From NCBI GenBank assembly GCA_017517845.1, contig JAFWXW010000027.1, positions 17,076 through 81,075 of the forward strand: DNA of 64,000 bases, in the 5' to 3' direction. This DNA is from Paludibacteraceae bacterium. GTDB lineage: Bacteria > Bacteroidota > Bacteroidia > Bacteroidales > Paludibacteraceae. Position 1 is the first letter of the stretch, and every line of letters starts with the position of its first letter. Of this stretch, positions 1,424-32,928 are shown piece by piece. The translations under genes and the position numbers were made by a program. The notes beneath the pieces are model-generated. The model made no database searches. It saw only the letters and a program-made list of their open reading frames with translations, and was not told the origin of the DNA.

Positions 1424-3079
1424 ATGAAAAACAATTTTTTATTTTTATTAATTTTATTTAGTGCCTCAATCACTGCACAAGTTCCCAATCATTTAATTTC
1501 TCCTGTAGATATTCCAGTTACATTAAGTGCTAGTTTCGGGGAATTAAGACCCAATCATTTCCATTCTGGTATAGACATAAAGACACAACAACAAATTGGT
1601 CTTCCTATGTATAGCATAGATGATGGTTATGTTTGGCGTATATCTATCTCACCTGGTGGATATGGAAATTGTCTTTACTTAAAACACAAAGATGTTATTT
1701 CTGTTTATGCTCACCTAGATAGATTTACTCCAGAGATAACAGAGTGGATAAGGGATTATCAGTATAAGAATAAAACATTCTCTATTGACGCTTATTTACA
1801 GCCAAATGAGATTCCTGTAAAGCAGGGTGATTTGGTGGCTTGGGGTGGAAATTCTGGCTCCTCTGGTGGACCTCATCTCCACTTTGAGATAAGAGACACC
1901 ACTGGTGTGTATGTATATGACGCACAGCCTTTGTACAATGTATATGATAATGTATATCCTCGTTTCAAGAATATTGCCATAAATCCTGTTTCTGGACTAG
2001 GTGTTGTGGACAATTCCTACACATATAAAATGTATGGAGTAAAAAGAACTGGAACAGGTAAATATGTGGCTAATAAAATTAAAGCATGGGGAAAAATTGG
2101 AATAGAAGTTAAAGCTTTTGATTATATGACAGGTCAAAACAACTTCTATGGTGTTAAGTCTTTGAAACTATTAGTAGATGATAAACTTACCTTTAGTTAT
2201 ATCATGGATAAATTTTCATTAGAAGATACTAGATATATCAACTCATTTATTAATTATGGTCAGTGGCAAAAGACTAGAGATACATTTATGAGATGTTATC
2301 TGCTACCCAACAATCCATTACCATTTTTTACCTCTTATAATAAGGGCTATTTGGATATAAATGAAGAAAAAGATTATAAAGTAAAAATCTTGATATCCGA
2401 TGTGGTAGGAAATACATCAGAACTTAACTTTACCATTCAAGGTGTGAAACAAGATATTCCATTAATGTTAAATGATAGTGGAACATACGTAGATTATAGA
2501 CTTCCTGCATTGATAGAAGGCAAAGGATATGGAATGGTGATCCCAAAAGGAAGTTTATATGACAATGTGTATTTTGACCATGGAGTGAAATTTGATAGCA
2601 CTTTGAATTCTAATATTTACAAACTACATTATTTAACTGAACCTCTACAAAAACACGTTAAGTTATTTATAAAGTTGCCCAATGATACTATACCTGCCGA
2701 TAAGCATTATGTAGCTCGTTGTGGAAGGAGAGGGGATTGGAATTCAGTTTCTACCAAATTATATAATGATAGTATTCTGCAAGTAAATACCAACTCACTT
2801 GGTGATTTTACTGTAAAAGTAGATACTGTGCCTCCTATTATAAGACCGCAGTCTCGCACATCTTCTAGAATTTTATTAAAAATATCAGACAAAGAGAGTG
2901 GTGTGAATAGATATGAAAGCTTTATAAATGGAGAATGGGTTCTTTTTGAACAAGACTTCTATGGTAGAGTTTCTTATAAATTGGATAAGAAAAGACTAAA
3001 AACCAAACGCCCATATAACCTAGAGTTTCGTGTTTACGACAACTGCGGAAATATGAGCGAATATAAGTTACGTTGGTAA
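1424..3079 (+). CDS. M23 family metallopeptidase with signal peptide
   Basis: Zn-ligand motifs HFHSGIDI (HxxxD) and GNSGSSGGPHLHFEI (HxH); N-terminal signal sequence. Confidence 0.85.
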   Translation: MKNNFLFLLILFSASITAQVPNHLISPVDIPVTLSASFGELRPNHFHSGIDIKTQQQIGLPMYSIDDGYVWRISISPGGYGNCLYLKHKDVISVYAHLDRFTPEITEWIRDYQYKNKTFSIDAYLQPNEIPVKQGDLVAWGGNSGSSGGPHLHFEIRDTTGVYVYDAQPLYNVYDNVYPRFKNIAINPVSGLGVVDNSYTYKMYGVKRTGTGKYVANKIKAWGKIGIEVKAFDYMTGQNNFYGVKSLKLLVDDKLTFSYIMDKFSLEDTRYINSFINYGQWQKTRDTFMRCYLLPNNPLPFFTSYNKGYLDINEEKDYKVKILISDVVGNTSELNFTIQGVKQDIPLMLNDSGTYVDYRLPALIEGKGYGMVIPKGSLYDNVYFDHGVKFDSTLNSNIYKLHYLTEPLQKHVKLFIKLPNDTIPADKHYVARCGRRGDWNSVSTKLYNDSILQVNTNSLGDFTVKVDTVPPIIRPQSRTSSRILLKISDKESGVNRYESFINGEWVLFEQDFYGRVSYKLDKKRLKTKRPYNLEFRVYDNCGNMSEYKLRW

Positions 3080-3424
3080 TTATAGTTTAACACAAACTTG
3101 TGTAACTTGCCCTCCAAGTGGAGGGTTAAGTTTACAGAGTTTTACTTCTGCTTCTATAATTTCTGGATATTCTTTTAGTACAGCTTGTTTTATTCTGTAT
3201 GCCACGTTTTCTATCAAATGAGATGGTTTGTCCATCTCTTTTTTTATGGTTTGATACACAGAAAGGTAACTTACTGCTCTTGTTATATCATCTGTTTCTA
3301 TTGCCTCGGTGGCATCGTATTTCATACGTAAAGAAACAGTAAAGTAAGTGCCCACCTTTTGCTCTAGGTCATAACACCCATGATGGGCATAAAACTGCAT
3401 ATCGTTTATTTCTATTTCTACCAT
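3080..3424 (-). CDS. folB: dihydroneopterin aldolase
   Basis: 114 aa, FYAHHGCYDLEQKVGTYF core typical of FolB. Confidence 0.8.
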   Translation of the reverse strand: MVEIEINDMQFYAHHGCYDLEQKVGTYFTVSLRMKYDATEAIETDDITRAVSYLSVYQTIKKEMDKPSHLIENVAYRIKQAVLKEYPEIIEAEVKLCKLNPPLGGQVTQVCVKL

Positions 3425-3426
3425 TA

Positions 3427-4167
3427 TTACATATTTAAACCGCCACAGCAGTTGATTACTTGACCAGATACGTAAGAAGACATATCAGAAGCTAAGAATA
3501 CAGCCACTCCAGCCACATCTTCTACTTTTCCTTCTCTATGTAATGGAATATTTAAAATCCATTGTTTTTTCATATCTTCATTTAATACGCCTGTCATTTC
3601 TGTAGCAATAAAGCCTGGGGCAATAGCATTAACTCTAATATTTCTGCCGCCTAGTTCTTTGGCAACAGACTTTGTTAAACCTATCAAACCAGCTTTTGAA
3701 GCAGCATAGTTTGCTTGACCAGCGTTTCCACTAATGCCTACTATAGAAGTCATATTAATGACACTTCCAGAACGTTGTCTCATCATAATAGGGGTAACTG
3801 CATGAATGTAGTTAAATGCAGATTTAAGGTTGGTATTGATAACCATATCCCATTGTTCTTCTGTCATTCTCATCAACAGACCATCTTTGGTAATACCAGC
3901 ATTGTTTACCAAAACATCTATTCTACCAAAGTCTTTCATTATTTCTGCTACTACATCTGCTGCAGAAGAAAAACAAGCCGCATCAGAAGCGTATGCTTTT
4001 GCAATACCACCCATTGCGGTGATTTCATTAACTAATGACTCACTACGTTCGTCCAATTTTCTAACTGTAAATGCCACAGTGGCACCTTGTTTTGCAAATG
4101 CTAGGGCTATTCCTTTACCAATACCTTGTGCAGCCCCTGTAATAAGTGCTATTTTTCCTTTTAACAT
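3427..4167 (-). CDS. fabG: 3-oxoacyl-[ACP] reductase (SDR)
   Basis: TGAAQGIGKGIA Rossmann motif, NNAG, YAASKAG catalytic YxxxK; start moved to ATG at 4167 (MLKGKIALITGA), which removes the overlap with the upstream gene. Confidence 0.88.
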   Translation of the reverse strand: MLKGKIALITGAAQGIGKGIALAFAKQGATVAFTVRKLDERSESLVNEITAMGGIAKAYASDAACFSSAADVVAEIMKDFGRIDVLVNNAGITKDGLLMRMTEEQWDMVINTNLKSAFNYIHAVTPIMMRQRSGSVINMTSIVGISGNAGQANYAASKAGLIGLTKSVAKELGGRNIRVNAIAPGFIATEMTGVLNEDMKKQWILNIPLHREGKVEDVAGVAVFLASDMSSYVSGQVINCCGGLNM

Positions 4168-29342: not shown

Positions 29343-30905
29343 ATGAGAAGAAAATTTATTATTTTAACTTTCATTACTTTAATGGTAATGAACGCATTTG
29401 CAGCACAAGTTACTATAGATGGTATAGTTTATGGTGATAAAGCTGAATATAGTTCTCTGCAAGATGGAGAAGCTATAGTTCTTAATTATACCAATGATTT
29501 ACCTGCGGCAATGGTAATTGCAGACAAAGTGGAAATTGAGGGAGTTGAACTTACTGTTGTAGAGATTACAGATGGTTTATTTTTGTATAATACTGTACGT
29601 ACTAACGAAATAACTTCTGTGAAGTTGCCTTCTGGACTTAAAAGAATTGGACGTTATGCATTTGAAGATTGTAAAAACCTAGAAACAGTAACAGGAATTC
29701 CTACTACACTTGAGTATATGGGAGGGCGTGTTTTTAATGGTACTAAATGGATAAACTCTCTAGAAGGAGAAGGTGTATATTTGTTTGGTGGTTGGGCTAT
29801 AGCTCATAGAGGTGTGGTTCCTCAATCTTTAACAATGCCAGAGGAAACAATTGGTATTACAGATGGTTTCTTGAAACGTGGTCCAACAAGTGGTTATTAT
29901 AACTTGAAAACACTAGTATTAAACGAGGGATTAAAGCAAATAACTTATTGTGCCTTTGACAATTCTTCTAATTTATCAAAAGTAACTTTACCTGCTTCTT
30001 TAGAATACCTTGATCCAGAGGGATTCTCTGGATGCGGAATTAAAGAATATGAAGTAGCAGCAGGTAGTATGTATTATAGTGCAGTTGATGGTGTTTTGTT
30101 TAATTTAGACAAAACAGAATTGGTTTCGTATCCATCTTACAAAGAAGGTGATTCTTATATTGTTCCAGATGGTGTGACAGATTTATCAGAACATGCATTT
30201 TATGGAACACGTTTAAAGTCTCTTGTACTACCAGAAGGAGTTCAAGTAATAGAATCTCAAGCTATTCGTCAAATGAATAATTTAGAAATTCTTATTCTTC
30301 CTTCAACTATAACTACAATGGGAATGGGTACGTTCTATGCATGTAAAAAATTGAAAACAGTTGTTTTAAAAGCAGAAGAATGTCCTGCATATGGTGGAGT
30401 AGACTTAAGTGCTTCAGATTTTGATAATATGATTCTATATGTTCCATCAGAAAGTGTTGAAACTTATAAGGAAAATTCTTCATGGGGTAAGCTAAATAGT
30501 AATGGTAGAGATAATATTAAATCTATAGATTTACTTAATGTTAGTGGTATTACATTGGATCAAACATCAGCAACACTTGTTGCTGGAGGAACAATCACTC
30601 TTGTTGCTACTGTAAGCCCAGAAAATGCACTTGATAAAACAGTAACATGGTCTAGTAGTGATGAAGGAGTAGCCTTGGTTGAAGGTGGTGTTGTTACAGC
30701 TGTGGCTCAAGGAACAACAACTATTAAAGCTACTGCAGGAGAATTCTCTGCAACTTGTGAAGTGACTGTATCTATACCTACTTCGGTTGAGGATGTTGAA
30801 GAGGATACAGAAGAGACTGTTATTTATGACCTTGCAGGACGTCGTGTTAAGGAAGCAACAAATGGTATTTATATCGTTAATGGTTCCAAGAAATTTATAA
30901 AATAA
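29343..30905 (+). CDS. BspA-type leucine-rich-repeat surface protein with Big_2 domain and T9SS C-terminal tail
   Basis: Repeated LP..L..IG..AF..C..L units; Big_2-like ITLDQTSATLVAGGTITLVATVSPENALDKTVTWSS; tail YDLAGRRV...GIYIVNGSKKFIK. Confidence 0.7.
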   Translation: MRRKFIILTFITLMVMNAFAAQVTIDGIVYGDKAEYSSLQDGEAIVLNYTNDLPAAMVIADKVEIEGVELTVVEITDGLFLYNTVRTNEITSVKLPSGLKRIGRYAFEDCKNLETVTGIPTTLEYMGGRVFNGTKWINSLEGEGVYLFGGWAIAHRGVVPQSLTMPEETIGITDGFLKRGPTSGYYNLKTLVLNEGLKQITYCAFDNSSNLSKVTLPASLEYLDPEGFSGCGIKEYEVAAGSMYYSAVDGVLFNLDKTELVSYPSYKEGDSYIVPDGVTDLSEHAFYGTRLKSLVLPEGVQVIESQAIRQMNNLEILILPSTITTMGMGTFYACKKLKTVVLKAEECPAYGGVDLSASDFDNMILYVPSESVETYKENSSWGKLNSNGRDNIKSIDLLNVSGITLDQTSATLVAGGTITLVATVSPENALDKTVTWSSSDEGVALVEGGVVTAVAQGTTTIKATAGEFSATCEVTVSIPTSVEDVEEDTEETVIYDLAGRRVKEATNGIYIVNGSKKFIK

Positions 30906-30919
30906 TTTTCCTATATATA

Positions 30920-30966
30920 CAAAACGCCGCACTCAAAGTTTTTTATTTTGGGTGCGGCGTTTGTAT
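30920..30966 (+). terminator. intrinsic terminator
   Basis: AAAACGCCGCAC-19 nt-GTGCGGCGTTT. Confidence 0.6.
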
Positions 30967-30983
30967 TATATAAAGAATTTTCT

Positions 30984-30991
30984 TATCTTTG
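30984..30991 (+). promoter_or_regulatory. -7 box TATCTTTG
   Basis: 32 nt upstream of ATG 31023. Confidence 0.45.
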
Positions 30992-31022
30992 CGAGGCAGT
31001 TCTGATTCTTACAAATTGATAA

Positions 31023-31613
31023 ATGAAAACTTCTGAACAAATATTAAAGATTAAATCTACAATACTTTACATCTTAGAAAAATTTCCAGAAGGTATAGAT
31101 TATATCCGACTTTTCAAGATAATGTATTTTGCACAGAGACAACATTTAGTTGTTTATGGCAGTCCTCTTATGGAAGATACATTTGTTGCAAGAAAATTAG
31201 GGCCGGTACCTGCGTTTTCATATAAAGTGGTTAAATATAAAGAAGGTGCTTTGTTGGATAAGTGTGCTATAACAGAAGAGTTGATGGATGTGGCAAATAG
31301 CATTGTTGTTTCTTGTGAAGGTGATGTTAAGATAATAAAGAAAGTTTCTGATGTAGTGTACGATGAAGATGAACTATCTGTTTCTAATATAAAAATGCTA
31401 GACAATAGCATAGAATTCTGTAAATCAAAGGATTCTAAGGAATTATCAAAACTCTCTCATGATAAGGCATGGAAGTTTTGCGATAAAATTTACAAAGAAA
31501 CGGGTGAAAATATCCCAATGACGTATTATAAAATAGCTGAGGCAGGTGATGCTACAAAATCAATGCTAAAGGTTATAAAAGAAAGACAAATGATTAAAGC
31601 AGATTTGTGCTAA
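31023..31613 (+). CDS. Panacea (DUF4065, SocA-like) antitoxin-domain protein
   Basis: RLFKIMYFAQRQHLVVYGSPLMEDTFVARKLGPVPAFSYKVV matches the K.LY.AQ...G.PL....F.A...GPV core of DUF4065 as I recall it. Confidence 0.65.
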   Translation: MKTSEQILKIKSTILYILEKFPEGIDYIRLFKIMYFAQRQHLVVYGSPLMEDTFVARKLGPVPAFSYKVVKYKEGALLDKCAITEELMDVANSIVVSCEGDVKIIKKVSDVVYDEDELSVSNIKMLDNSIEFCKSKDSKELSKLSHDKAWKFCDKIYKETGENIPMTYYKIAEAGDATKSMLKVIKERQMIKADLC

Positions 31614-32080
31614 TGACTTCTCTAGAAGATTTGCAGTTGAAATTTAGAGAAGTCACAGTTGAAAAACTAAAACCTGGTGCTCTCTTAATTACAACTTTAA
31701 CTCCCCAAGACGGCTTAATTCTTAAGAATAACAAGAAATTTCGCAAAAAAAGAATAGTCGTAGTAGGTGTTGATAAGAATACAGAAAAGATTTATGGTTC
31801 TGTTCTTGTTAATACTCACCTGAGTTTGTTGTCAGAATACTCAAGTGAGCATCTCTCTGCTCAATATGAATTGTCTGCAGAGAATTATCCATCATTTTTA
31901 GAATATAATAGTTATGTTGACTGCGGTGAGTTATTTGAAATAGATGTTGATAAACTACTTGCAGGAGAATATCACGGCGAATTAATGGATGAAGATAGGT
32001 CTGCCATTTGGAATATCTTAGAAACCACAGACACCCTAACAACCAAACAAAAGAAAAAATATAATATAAAAAGAAGATAA
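31613..32080 (+). CDS. hypothetical protein, candidate toxin partner of the Panacea-domain gene
   Basis: ATG overlaps upstream TAA (TAATG, 31611-31615); 156 aa; lysine-rich tail KQKKKYNIKRR; no family recognised. Confidence 0.5.
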   Translation: MTSLEDLQLKFREVTVEKLKPGALLITTLTPQDGLILKNNKKFRKKRIVVVGVDKNTEKIYGSVLVNTHLSLLSEYSSEHLSAQYELSAENYPSFLEYNSYVDCGELFEIDVDKLLAGEYHGELMDEDRSAIWNILETTDTLTTKQKKKYNIKRR

Positions 32081-32127
32081 AATAGAGATTAAATCGTTTG
32101 AAAAACTAGATTTATTAGAAAATTTAT

Positions 32128-32135
32128 TATTTTTG
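32128..32135 (+). promoter_or_regulatory. -7 box TATTTTTG
   Basis: About 280 nt upstream of ATG 32416, ahead of the structured leader. Confidence 0.4.
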
Positions 32136-32221
32136 CATTCAAACCAATTAAAAATTAAGACAAACAGACAGAAATTTAGAATTATAAAATAGAAAAATAT
32201 TATTTGAGAAGCGTTATGCTC

Positions 32222-32373
32222 TTCTTTAGATGAAAACCTGAGAAATTTTCAAAATAAGCAAGAATGGCATAGTGGTTTTTCACGTATATGCGTGGACTGC
32301 TATATCTACATCTGCTTATTAGGTTTTCTCAGGACCTTCATCTAAGACGTGGCATGGTAGTCCACGTTTTTTT
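32222..32373 (+). ncRNA. candidate cis-regulatory leader or sRNA with terminator
   Basis: Stacked helices 32223-32233/32338-32347, 32237-32245/32325-32333, 32252-32259/32313-32320, then the terminator; GGCATAGTGG...CACG (32265-) duplicates the terminator sequence GGCATGGTAGTCCACG. Confidence 0.35.
32348..32373 (+). terminator. intrinsic terminator 42 nt before ATG 32416
   Basis: ACGTGG-9 nt-CCACGT followed by T7. Confidence 0.55.
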
Positions 32374-32415
32374 ATGTCTTTACTTAACAGAAATATTAAC
32401 CAATAAATATAATAT

Positions 32416-32928
32416 ATGAAAAGAATCTACATTTATTTTTTAAGCATTTTTGCTTTTTTGTGTGTGGGATTAACTGCTAATGCTGCTGAAAAAGAAGCAA
32501 TGAATGTAATGAGTGATGAAATTAATATTTCTTCTACTCAATTAGAAAATCTAAAGAATATCACTTTTAGTGATACTCAAATGCTCATTTATCTTGAAAA
32601 CGGCAGTGTTATAAAACATGATTTCTCAAAGTTTGACAATGTTATTTTCGGTGAATATGTTCAATTTGTAGGATTAGAAGAGATGTCTTCTGAAAATATA
32701 GAATTCAATGTGTACCTATCAGAAGATAAACTACTCTCAGTGTCAAGCTCTTCTATTATTAATTCTCTTCAACTAGTAGATTTATCTGGTAAAACCATTA
32801 AAATAAATCTTTCTGGAGCAGAATCAAATAGCGTAAAAGTATCCATTGAGTCGTTATCTACAGGTTTATATATAGTATTAGCGCAAACAGAAAATGGAGT
32901 TAAAACAAGTAAAATAATAATCAAATAA
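32416..32928 (+). CDS. secreted protein with T9SS C-terminal sorting domain
   Basis: Signal peptide; tail LVDLSGKTI...LSTGLYIVLAQTENGVKTSKIIIK. Confidence 0.6.
   Translation: MKRIYIYFLSIFAFLCVGLTANAAEKEAMNVMSDEINISSTQLENLKNITFSDTQMLIYLENGSVIKHDFSKFDNVIFGEYVQFVGLEEMSSENIEFNVYLSEDKLLSVSSSSIINSLQLVDLSGKTIKINLSGAESNSVKVSIESLSTGLYIVLAQTENGVKTSKIIIK

Follow-up and report, generated by a model that had tools for sequence, protein, structure and literature searches.

Does this locus, which lies in a 64,000-nucleotide stretch of DNA (the window), pair a Panacea antitoxin with a toxin of a new family? A preliminary description of the sequence had proposed as much for two adjoining open reading frames, ORF1 and ORF2. 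Our analysis indicates that the two genes form an ordinary PanAT cassette, a member of a combination already described, in which PanA accompanies a predicted MazF-fold toxin. The setting is chromosomal, in an uncultured rumen bacterium, and the genes neighboring this copy are housekeeping and surface-protein genes.

Cassette layout and expression signals

The features of the locus are collected in Table 1. The TAATG joint that had been described between the two ORFs is present in the sequence; with such an overlap, panA and the toxin gene are expected to be coupled in translation. ORF2 could alternatively start at a GTG in the same frame at 31607, which would lengthen the product to 157 aa, yet both the alignment of homologues and the database entry for the protein favor 155 aa. 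The length of 156 aa given previously is corrected to that value. In GC content (about 31-33%) the cassette is like its flanks, with no anomaly. The window contains no Rfam family above gathering thresholds.

Table 1. Coordinates of the features of the panA-panT cassette (positions in the window)
Feature	Position	Strand	Description
Intrinsic terminator of the upstream LRR_5/Big_2 gene	30922..30962	+	18-pair stem, 8 G-C pairs, T-rich tail
Putative Bacteroidetes-type promoter	30960..30991	+	sequence read and motif match; presumed function
panA (ORF1)	31023..31613	+	196 aa, stand-alone Panacea (DUF4065) domain, antitoxin-like
TAATG stop/start overlap	31611..31615	+	sequence read; ORF2 ATG at 31613 inside TAATG
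panT (ORF2)	31613..32080	+	155 aa, divergent MazF/PemK-fold predicted toxin, PanT cluster T5

The strong terminator reported ahead of the cassette is real. It is the sole terminator-like site within positions 30700-32500, a separate inverted-repeat search recovers the same repeat, and it insulates the cassette transcriptionally from the upstream gene. The same scan found no terminator-like site 3' of ORF2, so the transcription unit may run on downstream. The putative promoter consists of a -33-like TTTG at 30960-30963, a 20-nt spacer, and a -7 box, TATCTTTG, at 30984-30991, which sits 32 nt before the ORF1 ATG. The consensus applied here, TAnnTTTG, is that of Bacteroides promoters. It is fitted both by this -7 box, as had been claimed, and by TATTTTTG at 32128-32135, where the next promoter had been placed and where the support is a motif match. 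The motif occurs 122 times in the window where 96 ± 10 matches are expected, a mild excess only, and a lone match is therefore weak evidence. Among 62 distinct homologous cassettes, however, 49 have a TAnnTTTG in the 120 nt that precede PanA, which supports the cassette having its own promoter. No operator-like inverted repeat was found between the promoter and the ORF1 ATG.

Conservation of the pair in other genomes was examined across homologous loci, collected with a close-family profile of ORF2 (A1). Seventy-two toxin ORFs were found; three start at a contig edge, leaving 69 testable loci, and in all 69 a PanA ORF lies directly upstream on the same strand. The outcome that would have spoken against the proposal, an ORF2 mostly unlinked to Panacea genes, was therefore not seen. 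Overlaps of 1, 4, or 10 nt between panA and the toxin gene (gaps of -1, -4, and -10) are the rule. The two genes are conserved together as a cassette, their translation is coupled, and their linkage is obligate. The testable loci are Bacteroidales nearly throughout, and the taxa represented include Prevotella, Segatella, Paraprevotella, Muribaculaceae, Tannerella, Capnocytophaga, and Chlorobaculum, among others. Clustered at 90% identity, the ORF2 family as a whole forms 152 groups (E ≤0.001); at 50% identity, it has 529 representatives. To look for an empty site, contigs with an exact copy of the 520-aa protein encoded upstream were collected, and all of them had the cassette.

ORF1 is a stand-alone Panacea protein

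The assignment of ORF1 to DUF4065/Panacea is borne out by an HMM search. ORF1, which contains the previously quoted DUF4065 core RLFKIMYFAQRQHLVVYGSPLMEDTFVARKLGPVP, matches Pfam PF13274 (SocA_Panacea) with an E-value of 3.8e-17 and 63.7 bits, above the cutoff of 25.7, and the full 113-position model is covered. It also matches PHROG 1281 (E 4.6e-22), and PF13274 is present in 95/95 ORF1 homologues. The architecture is Panacea domain only, with no N-terminal HTH, ZBD, or PAD1 domain. No other credible Pfam domain was found in ORF1, the sole extra match listed being PPI at E 0.11, below threshold. The AF2 model of PanA is confident (pLDDT 95, pTM 0.91) and lacks a low-confidence, likely disordered, tail. 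A PanA profile gave no match among PDB sequences, and Foldseek comparison of the model with the PDB gave nothing significant; the best E-value was 0.36, with weak winged-helix look-alikes.

PF13274 is common to this antitoxin and that of SocAB, the type VI system of Caulobacter crescentus, where SocA acts as an adaptor for ClpXP and the replication clamp is the target that SocB blocks. By analogy, PanA could hand its toxin to a protease such as ClpXP for constant degradation without blocking the toxin itself. The name of the Pfam domain ('SocA-like') and a weak match of ORF1 to the NCBIfam SocA_antitoxin model (NF047745, E 2.5e-8) point in this direction, and some database copies of PanA bear the name 'SocA family protein'. 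The match to this equivalog model reaches just 33.8 bits against a cutoff of 190, the partner is MazF-like rather than SocB, and PanAT pairs examined to date associate stably, in the manner of type II systems. We consider such a mechanism very improbable. Membership in SocAB itself was rejected on the score of the equivalog model and the MazF fold of the partner.

Predicted fold of ORF2 and its place in PanT cluster T5

Direct searches of ORF2 against Pfam, NCBIfam, and PADLOC gave no match even at E 10, and PHROGs gave nothing usable. Its resemblance to MazF/PemK, previously called vague and tied to the stretch KPGALL...VVVGV (ORF2 residues 20-53), is real at the levels of fold and profile, and the view of ORF2 as an unrecognized toxin does not hold. 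The best 50 PDB matches of the AF2 model (pLDDT 79, pTM 0.76) found by Foldseek are all MazF-family toxins, most of them annotated MazF, with E-values of 1.2e-6 to 3e-3, a probability of 1.00, and target-normalized TM-scores of 0.7-0.77. Against the viral models of BFVD, most significant matches, the best included, are annotated PemK-like or endoribonuclease. At the sequence level, Pfam PF02452 (PemK_toxin) is matched by 34 of 92 distant ORF2 relatives at E ≤1, with a best value of 4.1e-6. A wider family profile (A2) finds S. aureus MazF among PDB sequences at E 1e-4, and its matches there are MazF, EndoA, and PemK. MazF was reached with A2 only; the close-family profile (A1) gave chance matches alone, to a crystallin and TnpB, at E >1. 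With hhalign, the family aligns to a five-sequence MazF/Kid/ChpBK alignment over 110 columns (probability 82%, E 1e-5), a reference set of which one sequence, S. aureus MazF, was compared with a PDB chain and mostly agrees with it. When A2 was aligned to a single EndoA sequence, the C-terminal half alone aligned, with a probability of 24%. The model and the family profiles identify ORF2 as a divergent MazF/PemK-fold protein. Its predicted MazF-like core (approximately residues 18-144) is accompanied by an N-terminal helix and by the basic C-terminal tail noted previously (TKQKKKYNIKRR), which is conserved.

This family is not new. Kurata et al. in 2022 catalogued a PanT cluster, T5, of 66 entries, for which HHpred gives EndoA/MazF at 99.5% (PMC8832971). 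Their Dataset S1 places the C. granulosa proteins WP_016420683.1 (PanA) and WP_016420684.1 in T5 with a 3-nt gap (PMC8832971). These two proteins are the PanA and the toxin of our Capnocytophaga granulosa locus (L067), and the ORF2 family HMM detects WP_016420684.1 with an E-value of 4.5e-25, while BLASTP aligns it to ORF2 itself at 31% identity (E 2e-8). A gap of -10 is common to the Prevotella copri T5 entry and the Segatella copri loci L026-L028. Homology to the listed member WP_016420684.1 identifies the ORF2 family as the published T5 cluster. Since T5 is annotated MazF/EndoA-like, a PanA with a MazF-fold toxin is already a described combination, and the candidacy of ORF2 as a new PanA-associated toxin is not supported.

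T5 pairs such as those of C. granulosa and Chryseobacterium bovis resemble the cassette in that a Panacea-only ('noNTD') antitoxin comes first, the genes are a few nucleotides apart or overlapping, and the toxin is a MazF/EndoA-like protein of ~150 aa. Many T5 members are, like the cassette, from Bacteroidetes. ORF2 stands apart from them by its Prevotellaceae/Bacteroidales sub-branch, with proteins of 155-158 aa, by an identity of just ~31% to the Capnocytophaga T5 toxin, and by a strongly conserved TTDTLSTKEKKRFGIRRR-type tail. In the sister cluster T6, one PanA and MazF-fold pair has been experimentally validated (PMC8832971). The Pseudomonas moraviensis (T6) and Bifidobacterium ruminantium systems, like the cassette, combine PanA with a MazF-like toxin (EndoA/PemK/MazF by HHpred). 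For both pairs, experiments have confirmed that the toxin is toxic, blocks protein synthesis, and is neutralized by its own PanA, with which it forms a complex. Compared by description, these toxins fall in sequence clusters other than that of ORF2 and come from Proteobacteria and Actinobacteria.

The MazEF, PemIK, and Kid-Kis systems are like the cassette in predicted toxin fold, bicistronic organization, and antitoxin-first order, and ORF2 shares with classical MazF toxins both the 'DS' serine and the Gly that opens strand 1. The cassette differs in that a Panacea protein takes the place of MazE/PemI as antitoxin, Lys/Asn stand where the profile alignment puts the catalytic Arg/Thr, and ORF2, which is ~40 residues longer by virtue of its N-terminal helix and basic tail, misses the Pfam model. 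A classical MazEF/PemIK operon was rejected as an identity for the locus because the upstream gene encodes a Panacea protein and no MazE/PemI-type antitoxin.

The MazF fold is also that of CcdB, and the HHpred listing for T5 includes CcdB at 98% (PMC8832971), so ORF2 might be a DNA gyrase poison instead of an RNA cleaver. No CcdB occurs among the best 50 PDB fold matches, the PDB profile matches are those to MazF-family toxins given above, and the Pfam matches of the relatives are to PemK_toxin, with no CcdB family among the 25 families listed. Moreover, the validated MazF-like PanTs inhibit translation. A gyrase poison is the least probable of the readings weighed here.

Catalytic positions, proposed mechanism, and biological role

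Across 92 family sequences, K46 (100%), N67 (98%), S100 (96%), and C104 (97%) are strongly conserved. In hhalign, an alignment of low identity, the first three pair as K46-R25, N67-T48, and S100-S73 in B. subtilis MazF numbering; the HMMER alignment sets Asn67 four positions off this placement, and Ser/Thr68 directly follows Asn67 in the family. Ser100 aligns with the conserved MazF 'DS' serine, the invariant C104 lies in a YDSYVDC motif, and the conserved basic tail reads K-x-KK-x-FG. The catalytic residues of MazF are Arg25 and Thr48 (PMC7354611). Lys46 would therefore stand at the catalytic-Arg position and Asn67 at the catalytic-Thr position, and we infer catalytic roles for both from the alignment. 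Because the canonical Arg/Thr dyad reads Lys/Asn in this family, catalysis is not assured.

This substitution, together with the failure of ORF2 to reach any Pfam threshold and the finding that one MazF-like PanT of cluster T8 is non-toxic in E. coli (PMC8832971), could indicate that ORF2 is a MazF-fold protein that lost or never had nuclease activity and works alongside PanA as an RNA-binding or regulatory protein. We give this interpretation little credence. Nowhere in the family is conservation higher than at the catalytic positions, which argues for function rather than decay, and M. tuberculosis MazF4 is active with Lys in place of Arg (PMC7354611). The single T5 member tested, the toxin of the Chryseobacterium bovis pair WP_076782182.1/WP_076782181.1, is toxic in E. 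coli; the PanA of this pair, the sole T5 pair tested, is itself toxic in that host, and so neutralization was never shown (PMC8832971). Strict antitoxin-first linkage with gene overlap is typical of a toxic partner, and decayed copies of the cassette (L036, L037, and L069) have lost the toxin and retained PanA.

These comparisons allow us to propose a mechanism. Judged from sequence and predicted structure, the cassette is probably a PanAT-class toxin-antitoxin system of type II, carried on the chromosome, whose PanA would bind a MazF-like endoribonuclease and thereby block it. The two genes would be co-transcribed, probably from their own Bacteroidetes-type promoter just past the terminator of the upstream gene, and their translation would be coupled through TAATG with the antitoxin made first. 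ORF2 most likely acts as an endoribonuclease that halts translation. ORF1, having no separate neutralizing or DNA-binding domain, most likely neutralizes the toxin by direct protein-protein binding. Direct neutralization of a toxin by a stand-alone Panacea domain is possible (PMC10440598). The toxin would become free once PanA is lost or triggered; proteolysis may be the trigger, or another cue, possibly phage infection. The biological role of the cassette as a toxin-antitoxin module is one that we infer.

The same molecular parts could serve a different role under a different trigger. In an abortive-infection or phage-defense module, PanA would sense a phage cue and release or activate the MazF-like toxin. 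Ernits et al. (2023) favor a sensory Panacea and tie toxin-antitoxin modules to phage defense (PMC10440598). They also point to the fused toxin-antitoxin CapRel, which becomes active without its antitoxin part dissociating and in which that part is related to one of the domains associated with PanA (PMC10440598); its own source paper reports that a viral capsid protein activates CapRel directly. The flanks of homologous cassettes are variable and unrelated from locus to locus, including capsule loci, efflux genes, and plasmids, and in one locus (L001) a PLD/helicase (DUF3427) gene adjoins the cassette. Against this, neither protein has a match in PADLOC (PADLOC-DB 2.0) at E ≤10, toxin homologues are absent from 50,697 phage records, no recognizable defense gene occurs among the housekeeping and surface-protein neighbors of the window copy, and no experiment with a T5 pair touches on phage. 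We regard a defense role as unlikely. A broader proposal, slightly less likely still, is that T5-type PanTs, ORF2 included, are not ordinary mRNA interferases and that the stand-alone Panacea domain, instead of inhibiting passively, could sense a phage cue. In T5 PanTs, the Lys/Asn pair, C104, and the basic tail could be signs that catalysis is arranged differently or that the toxin acts on a specific structured RNA, for example rRNA or tRNA.

With a type II PanAT module as the preferred reading, the cassette adds one member to T5 and no new toxin family, and it leaves the current picture of toxin-antitoxin biology unchanged. Its value lies mainly in annotation: a family of 'hypothetical proteins' from the Prevotellaceae, the Muribaculaceae, and further Bacteroidales of gut and rumen can now be named as the MazF-like PanT toxin of cluster T5, with PanA as its partner.

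Cassette layout and candidate transcription signals

ORF1, encoding PanA (the Panacea antitoxin-like protein), and ORF2, encoding its candidate toxin partner PanT, sit in the chromosome between genes for an LRR_5/Big_2 surface protein and a Por_Secre_tail protein. A preliminary description gave their coordinates and TAATG overlap, both of which were correct on re-reading; its 156 aa for ORF2 becomes 155 aa, with homologue alignment and the database copy of the protein favoring the ATG over an in-frame GTG at 31607. The two genes would be co-transcribed and translationally coupled. The strong terminator described before the cassette is present and is the sole terminator-like site in 30700–32500; the same scan found none 3′ of ORF2.

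Features of the window cassette and decayed homologous cassettes (L loci, from other genomes or contigs, in their own coordinates)
Feature	Coordinates	Strand	Remarks
Terminator of upstream LRR_5/Big_2 gene	30922–30962	+	strong hairpin, T-rich tail
–7 box TATCTTTG	30984–30991	+	matches Bacteroidetes consensus TAnnTTTG
ORF1 (PanA)	31023–31613	+	196 aa
ORF1/ORF2 overlap TAATG	31611–31615	+	sequence read
ORF2 (toxin candidate)	ATG 31613, stop 32080	+	155 aa
–7-like box TATTTTTG	32128–32135		matches TAnnTTTG; ~280 nt before start of Por_Secre_tail gene
Por_Secre_tail protein gene	32416–32928		next gene beyond ORF2
Decayed cassette	L036:2337–3216
Decayed cassette	L037:3001–3144
Decayed cassette	L069:2330–3066

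Bacteroidetes promoters carry a –7 TAnnTTTG element with an upstream TTTG. In the sequence as read, the box preceding ORF1 has a TTTG 20 nt 5′ of it. Because the window contains 122 TAnnTTTG matches versus 96 ± 10 expected, a motif match alone is weak evidence. TAnnTTTG also occurs within 120 nt upstream of PanA in 49 of 62 distinct homologous cassettes; therefore, the idea that the cassette has its own putative promoter holds up. The box of the next promoter, proposed at 32128, matches the same motif. The 335-nt AT-rich spacer from the toxin stop codon to the Por_Secre_tail gene (32081–32415) has no Rfam match.

Muribaculaceae cassettes (L040, L044–L047, L053, L054, L058–L060) share a conserved leader of ~60 nt that separates the TAnnTTTG box from the PanA start (around locus positions 2330–2392). 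It contains conserved blocks AAACYGCA and ACGTTAGAT and could be an operator or leader element.

The Panacea protein and the fold of its partner

The assignment of ORF1 to DUF4065/Panacea was borne out by HMM search, with Pfam PF13274 (SocA_Panacea) matched over the full model (E 3.8e-17, 63.7 bits; gathering score, 25.7 bits) and PHROG 1281 at E 4.6e-22. PF13274 is present in 95 of 95 ORF1 homologues found, which are 157–228 aa long. The NCBIfam SocA equivalog scores 33.8 bits against a threshold of 190, so far under it that ORF1 is a Panacea protein and not SocA. A SocAB-like system with the antitoxin as protease adaptor is very improbable. The AlphaFold2 model of ORF1 is compact (pLDDT 95, pTM 0.91), with neither a low-confidence, likely disordered tail nor an extra N-terminal domain. 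Among solved structures, no significant match was obtained with the PanA profile on PDB sequences or by Foldseek of the model, the best Foldseek E being 0.36 (a Lamassu subunit and winged-helix proteins). The Panacea fold thus seems unrepresented or unrecognizable in the PDB copy searched.

ORF2 alone has no direct match in Pfam, NCBIfam, PADLOC, or PHROGs. Its family, at E ≤ 0.001, comprises 152 clusters at 90% identity, nearly all of them unnamed and 154–162 aa long, and 529 representatives at 50% identity. The AlphaFold2 model (pLDDT 79, pTM 0.76) is a small β-barrel with flanking helices, and MazF-family toxins, most annotated MazF, fill 50 of its 50 top Foldseek hits in the PDB (best E 1.2e-6, probability 1.00, target-normalized TM-score 0.7–0.77). 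Significant hits among viral predicted structures, including the best one, are mostly annotated PemK-like/endoribonuclease. Sequence profiles agree with this fold: PF02452 (PemK_toxin) is matched by 34 of 92 distant family members (best E 4.1e-6), and the family profile finds S. aureus MazF among PDB sequences (E 1e-4). In hhalign against a small MazF/Kid/ChpBK reference alignment, ORF2 residues 18–144 align with EndoA residues 2–115 (probability 82%, E 1e-5, 110 columns). This alignment is provisional: of its five reference sequences, one, S. aureus MazF, largely agrees with the PDB chain in the profile search. The MazF/PemK resemblance, noted earlier as a vague one in a single stretch, was thus right. 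A CcdB-like gyrase poison is extremely improbable. Additions to the MazF core in this family are an N-terminal helix and a conserved, basic tail at the C terminus.

Cluster T5 and gene linkage

Kurata et al. (2022), who introduced PanA/PanT, predicted 1,268 pairs with 88 toxin clusters, among which T5, T6, T8, and T29 are EndoA/MazF/PemK-like by HHpred (Dataset S1; PMC8832971). Of the 66 entries in T5, many are from Bacteroidetes, among them Prevotella copri, P. histicola, Parabacteroides, and Capnocytophaga (PMC8832971). ORF2 homology retrieved a C. granulosa locus encoding WP_016420683.1 (PanA) and WP_016420684.1 (toxin), a pair assigned to T5 with order A|T and gap 3 (PMC8832971); the measured gap is likewise 3 nt. 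The ORF2 family HMM recovers WP_016420684.1 at E 4.5e-25, and its match to ORF2 alone has E 2e-8. A gap of –10 is given for the T5 entry from P. copri (PMC8832971) and is also seen at Segatella copri loci, whose toxins are 47–48% identical to ORF2. On this evidence, ORF2 belongs to T5. The earlier suggestion of a new family of PanA-associated toxins is therefore unsupported; the cassette is a new member of a catalogued PanAT kind.

Conservation of the gene pair was examined in one genome per species and in contigs of selected homologues. After setting aside 3 of 72 toxin ORFs that begin at a contig edge, a PanA-like ORF lies directly upstream on the same strand in 69 of 69 loci. The usual arrangement is an overlap of 1, 4, or 10 nt or a spacing of up to ~25 nt; a few loci have computed gaps as large as 45–173 nt. 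Nearly all hosts are Bacteroidales (Prevotella, Segatella, Paraprevotella, Muribaculaceae, Tannerella), and Capnocytophaga, Chlorobaculum, and cyanobacterial MAGs account for a few more distant copies. Flanking genes are unrelated between loci; capsule biosynthesis loci, efflux genes, and a PLD-helicase gene are among them. The window cassette, in rumen metagenome contigs and near genes for RNase III, FabF, ACP, and DapB, has no unusual GC content and is present in every contig sharing its flank. The toxin occurs on four Bacteroidales plasmids or extrachromosomal records, and the phage records searched contain no homologue. A sensor role has been proposed for Panacea (Ernits et al. 2023, PMC10440598); phage defense with PanA as sensor, compatible with the same parts, is rather unlikely.

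Two cassettes (L003:5401–6465 and L005:5420–6489) are embedded in loci for capsular or O-antigen polysaccharide synthesis, flanked by Wzz or Bac_transf genes and by sugar-nucleotide genes, and share the strand of the operon around them. A Bacteroidales MAG has two tandem pairs (L030:1085–3465); the first toxin (1671–2105) is weakly related to the ORF2 family (HMM E 1.3e-4), and the second pair (2402–2986 and 2986–3465) contains a clear member. Decayed cassettes keep either PanA or just a toxin remnant. In a copy on the Phocaeicola vulgatus chromosome, PanA is intact and the toxin N-terminal half is replaced or frameshifted; L069 retains intact PanA and a short C-terminal toxin remnant, and L037 has a 48-aa C-terminal remnant without PanA.

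Proposed mechanism and candidate catalytic residues

The cassette is probably a type II PanAT toxin–antitoxin module with a MazF-fold toxin and a Panacea antitoxin. ORF2 would act as an endoribonuclease-type toxin, and ORF1, as a stand-alone Panacea antitoxin, would bind it directly until a presumed trigger. PanAs complex with their toxins (Kurata et al. 2022, PMC8832971). Direct neutralization by a Panacea domain on its own has been demonstrated, and MazF/PemK is among the commonest folds of the network (Ernits et al. 2023, PMC10440598). Validated MazF-like PanTs from P. moraviensis (T6) and B. ruminantium inhibit translation (PMC8832971). The C. bovis T5 toxin is toxic in E. coli, as is its cognate PanA, which left neutralization undemonstrated for that pair (PMC8832971). 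One T8 MazF-like PanT was non-toxic (PMC8832971). It is improbable that ORF2 is a non-catalytic MazF-fold partner.

For the favored toxin–antitoxin reading, hhalign pairs Lys46 (100% conserved in 92 sequences) with MazF Arg25 and Asn67 (98%) with Thr48, in a tentative register because HMMER places Asn67 four residues away. The residue after Asn67 is Ser or Thr in 96% of family sequences, and the serine of the MazF "DS" motif is paired with Ser100 (96% conserved). Catalysis in MazF is carried out by Arg25 and Thr48, and M. tuberculosis MazF4 is active with Lys in place of Arg (PMC7354611). The residual novelty would lie in T5 toxin biochemistry: Lys and Asn at putative catalytic positions, an invariant Cys, and the basic tail.
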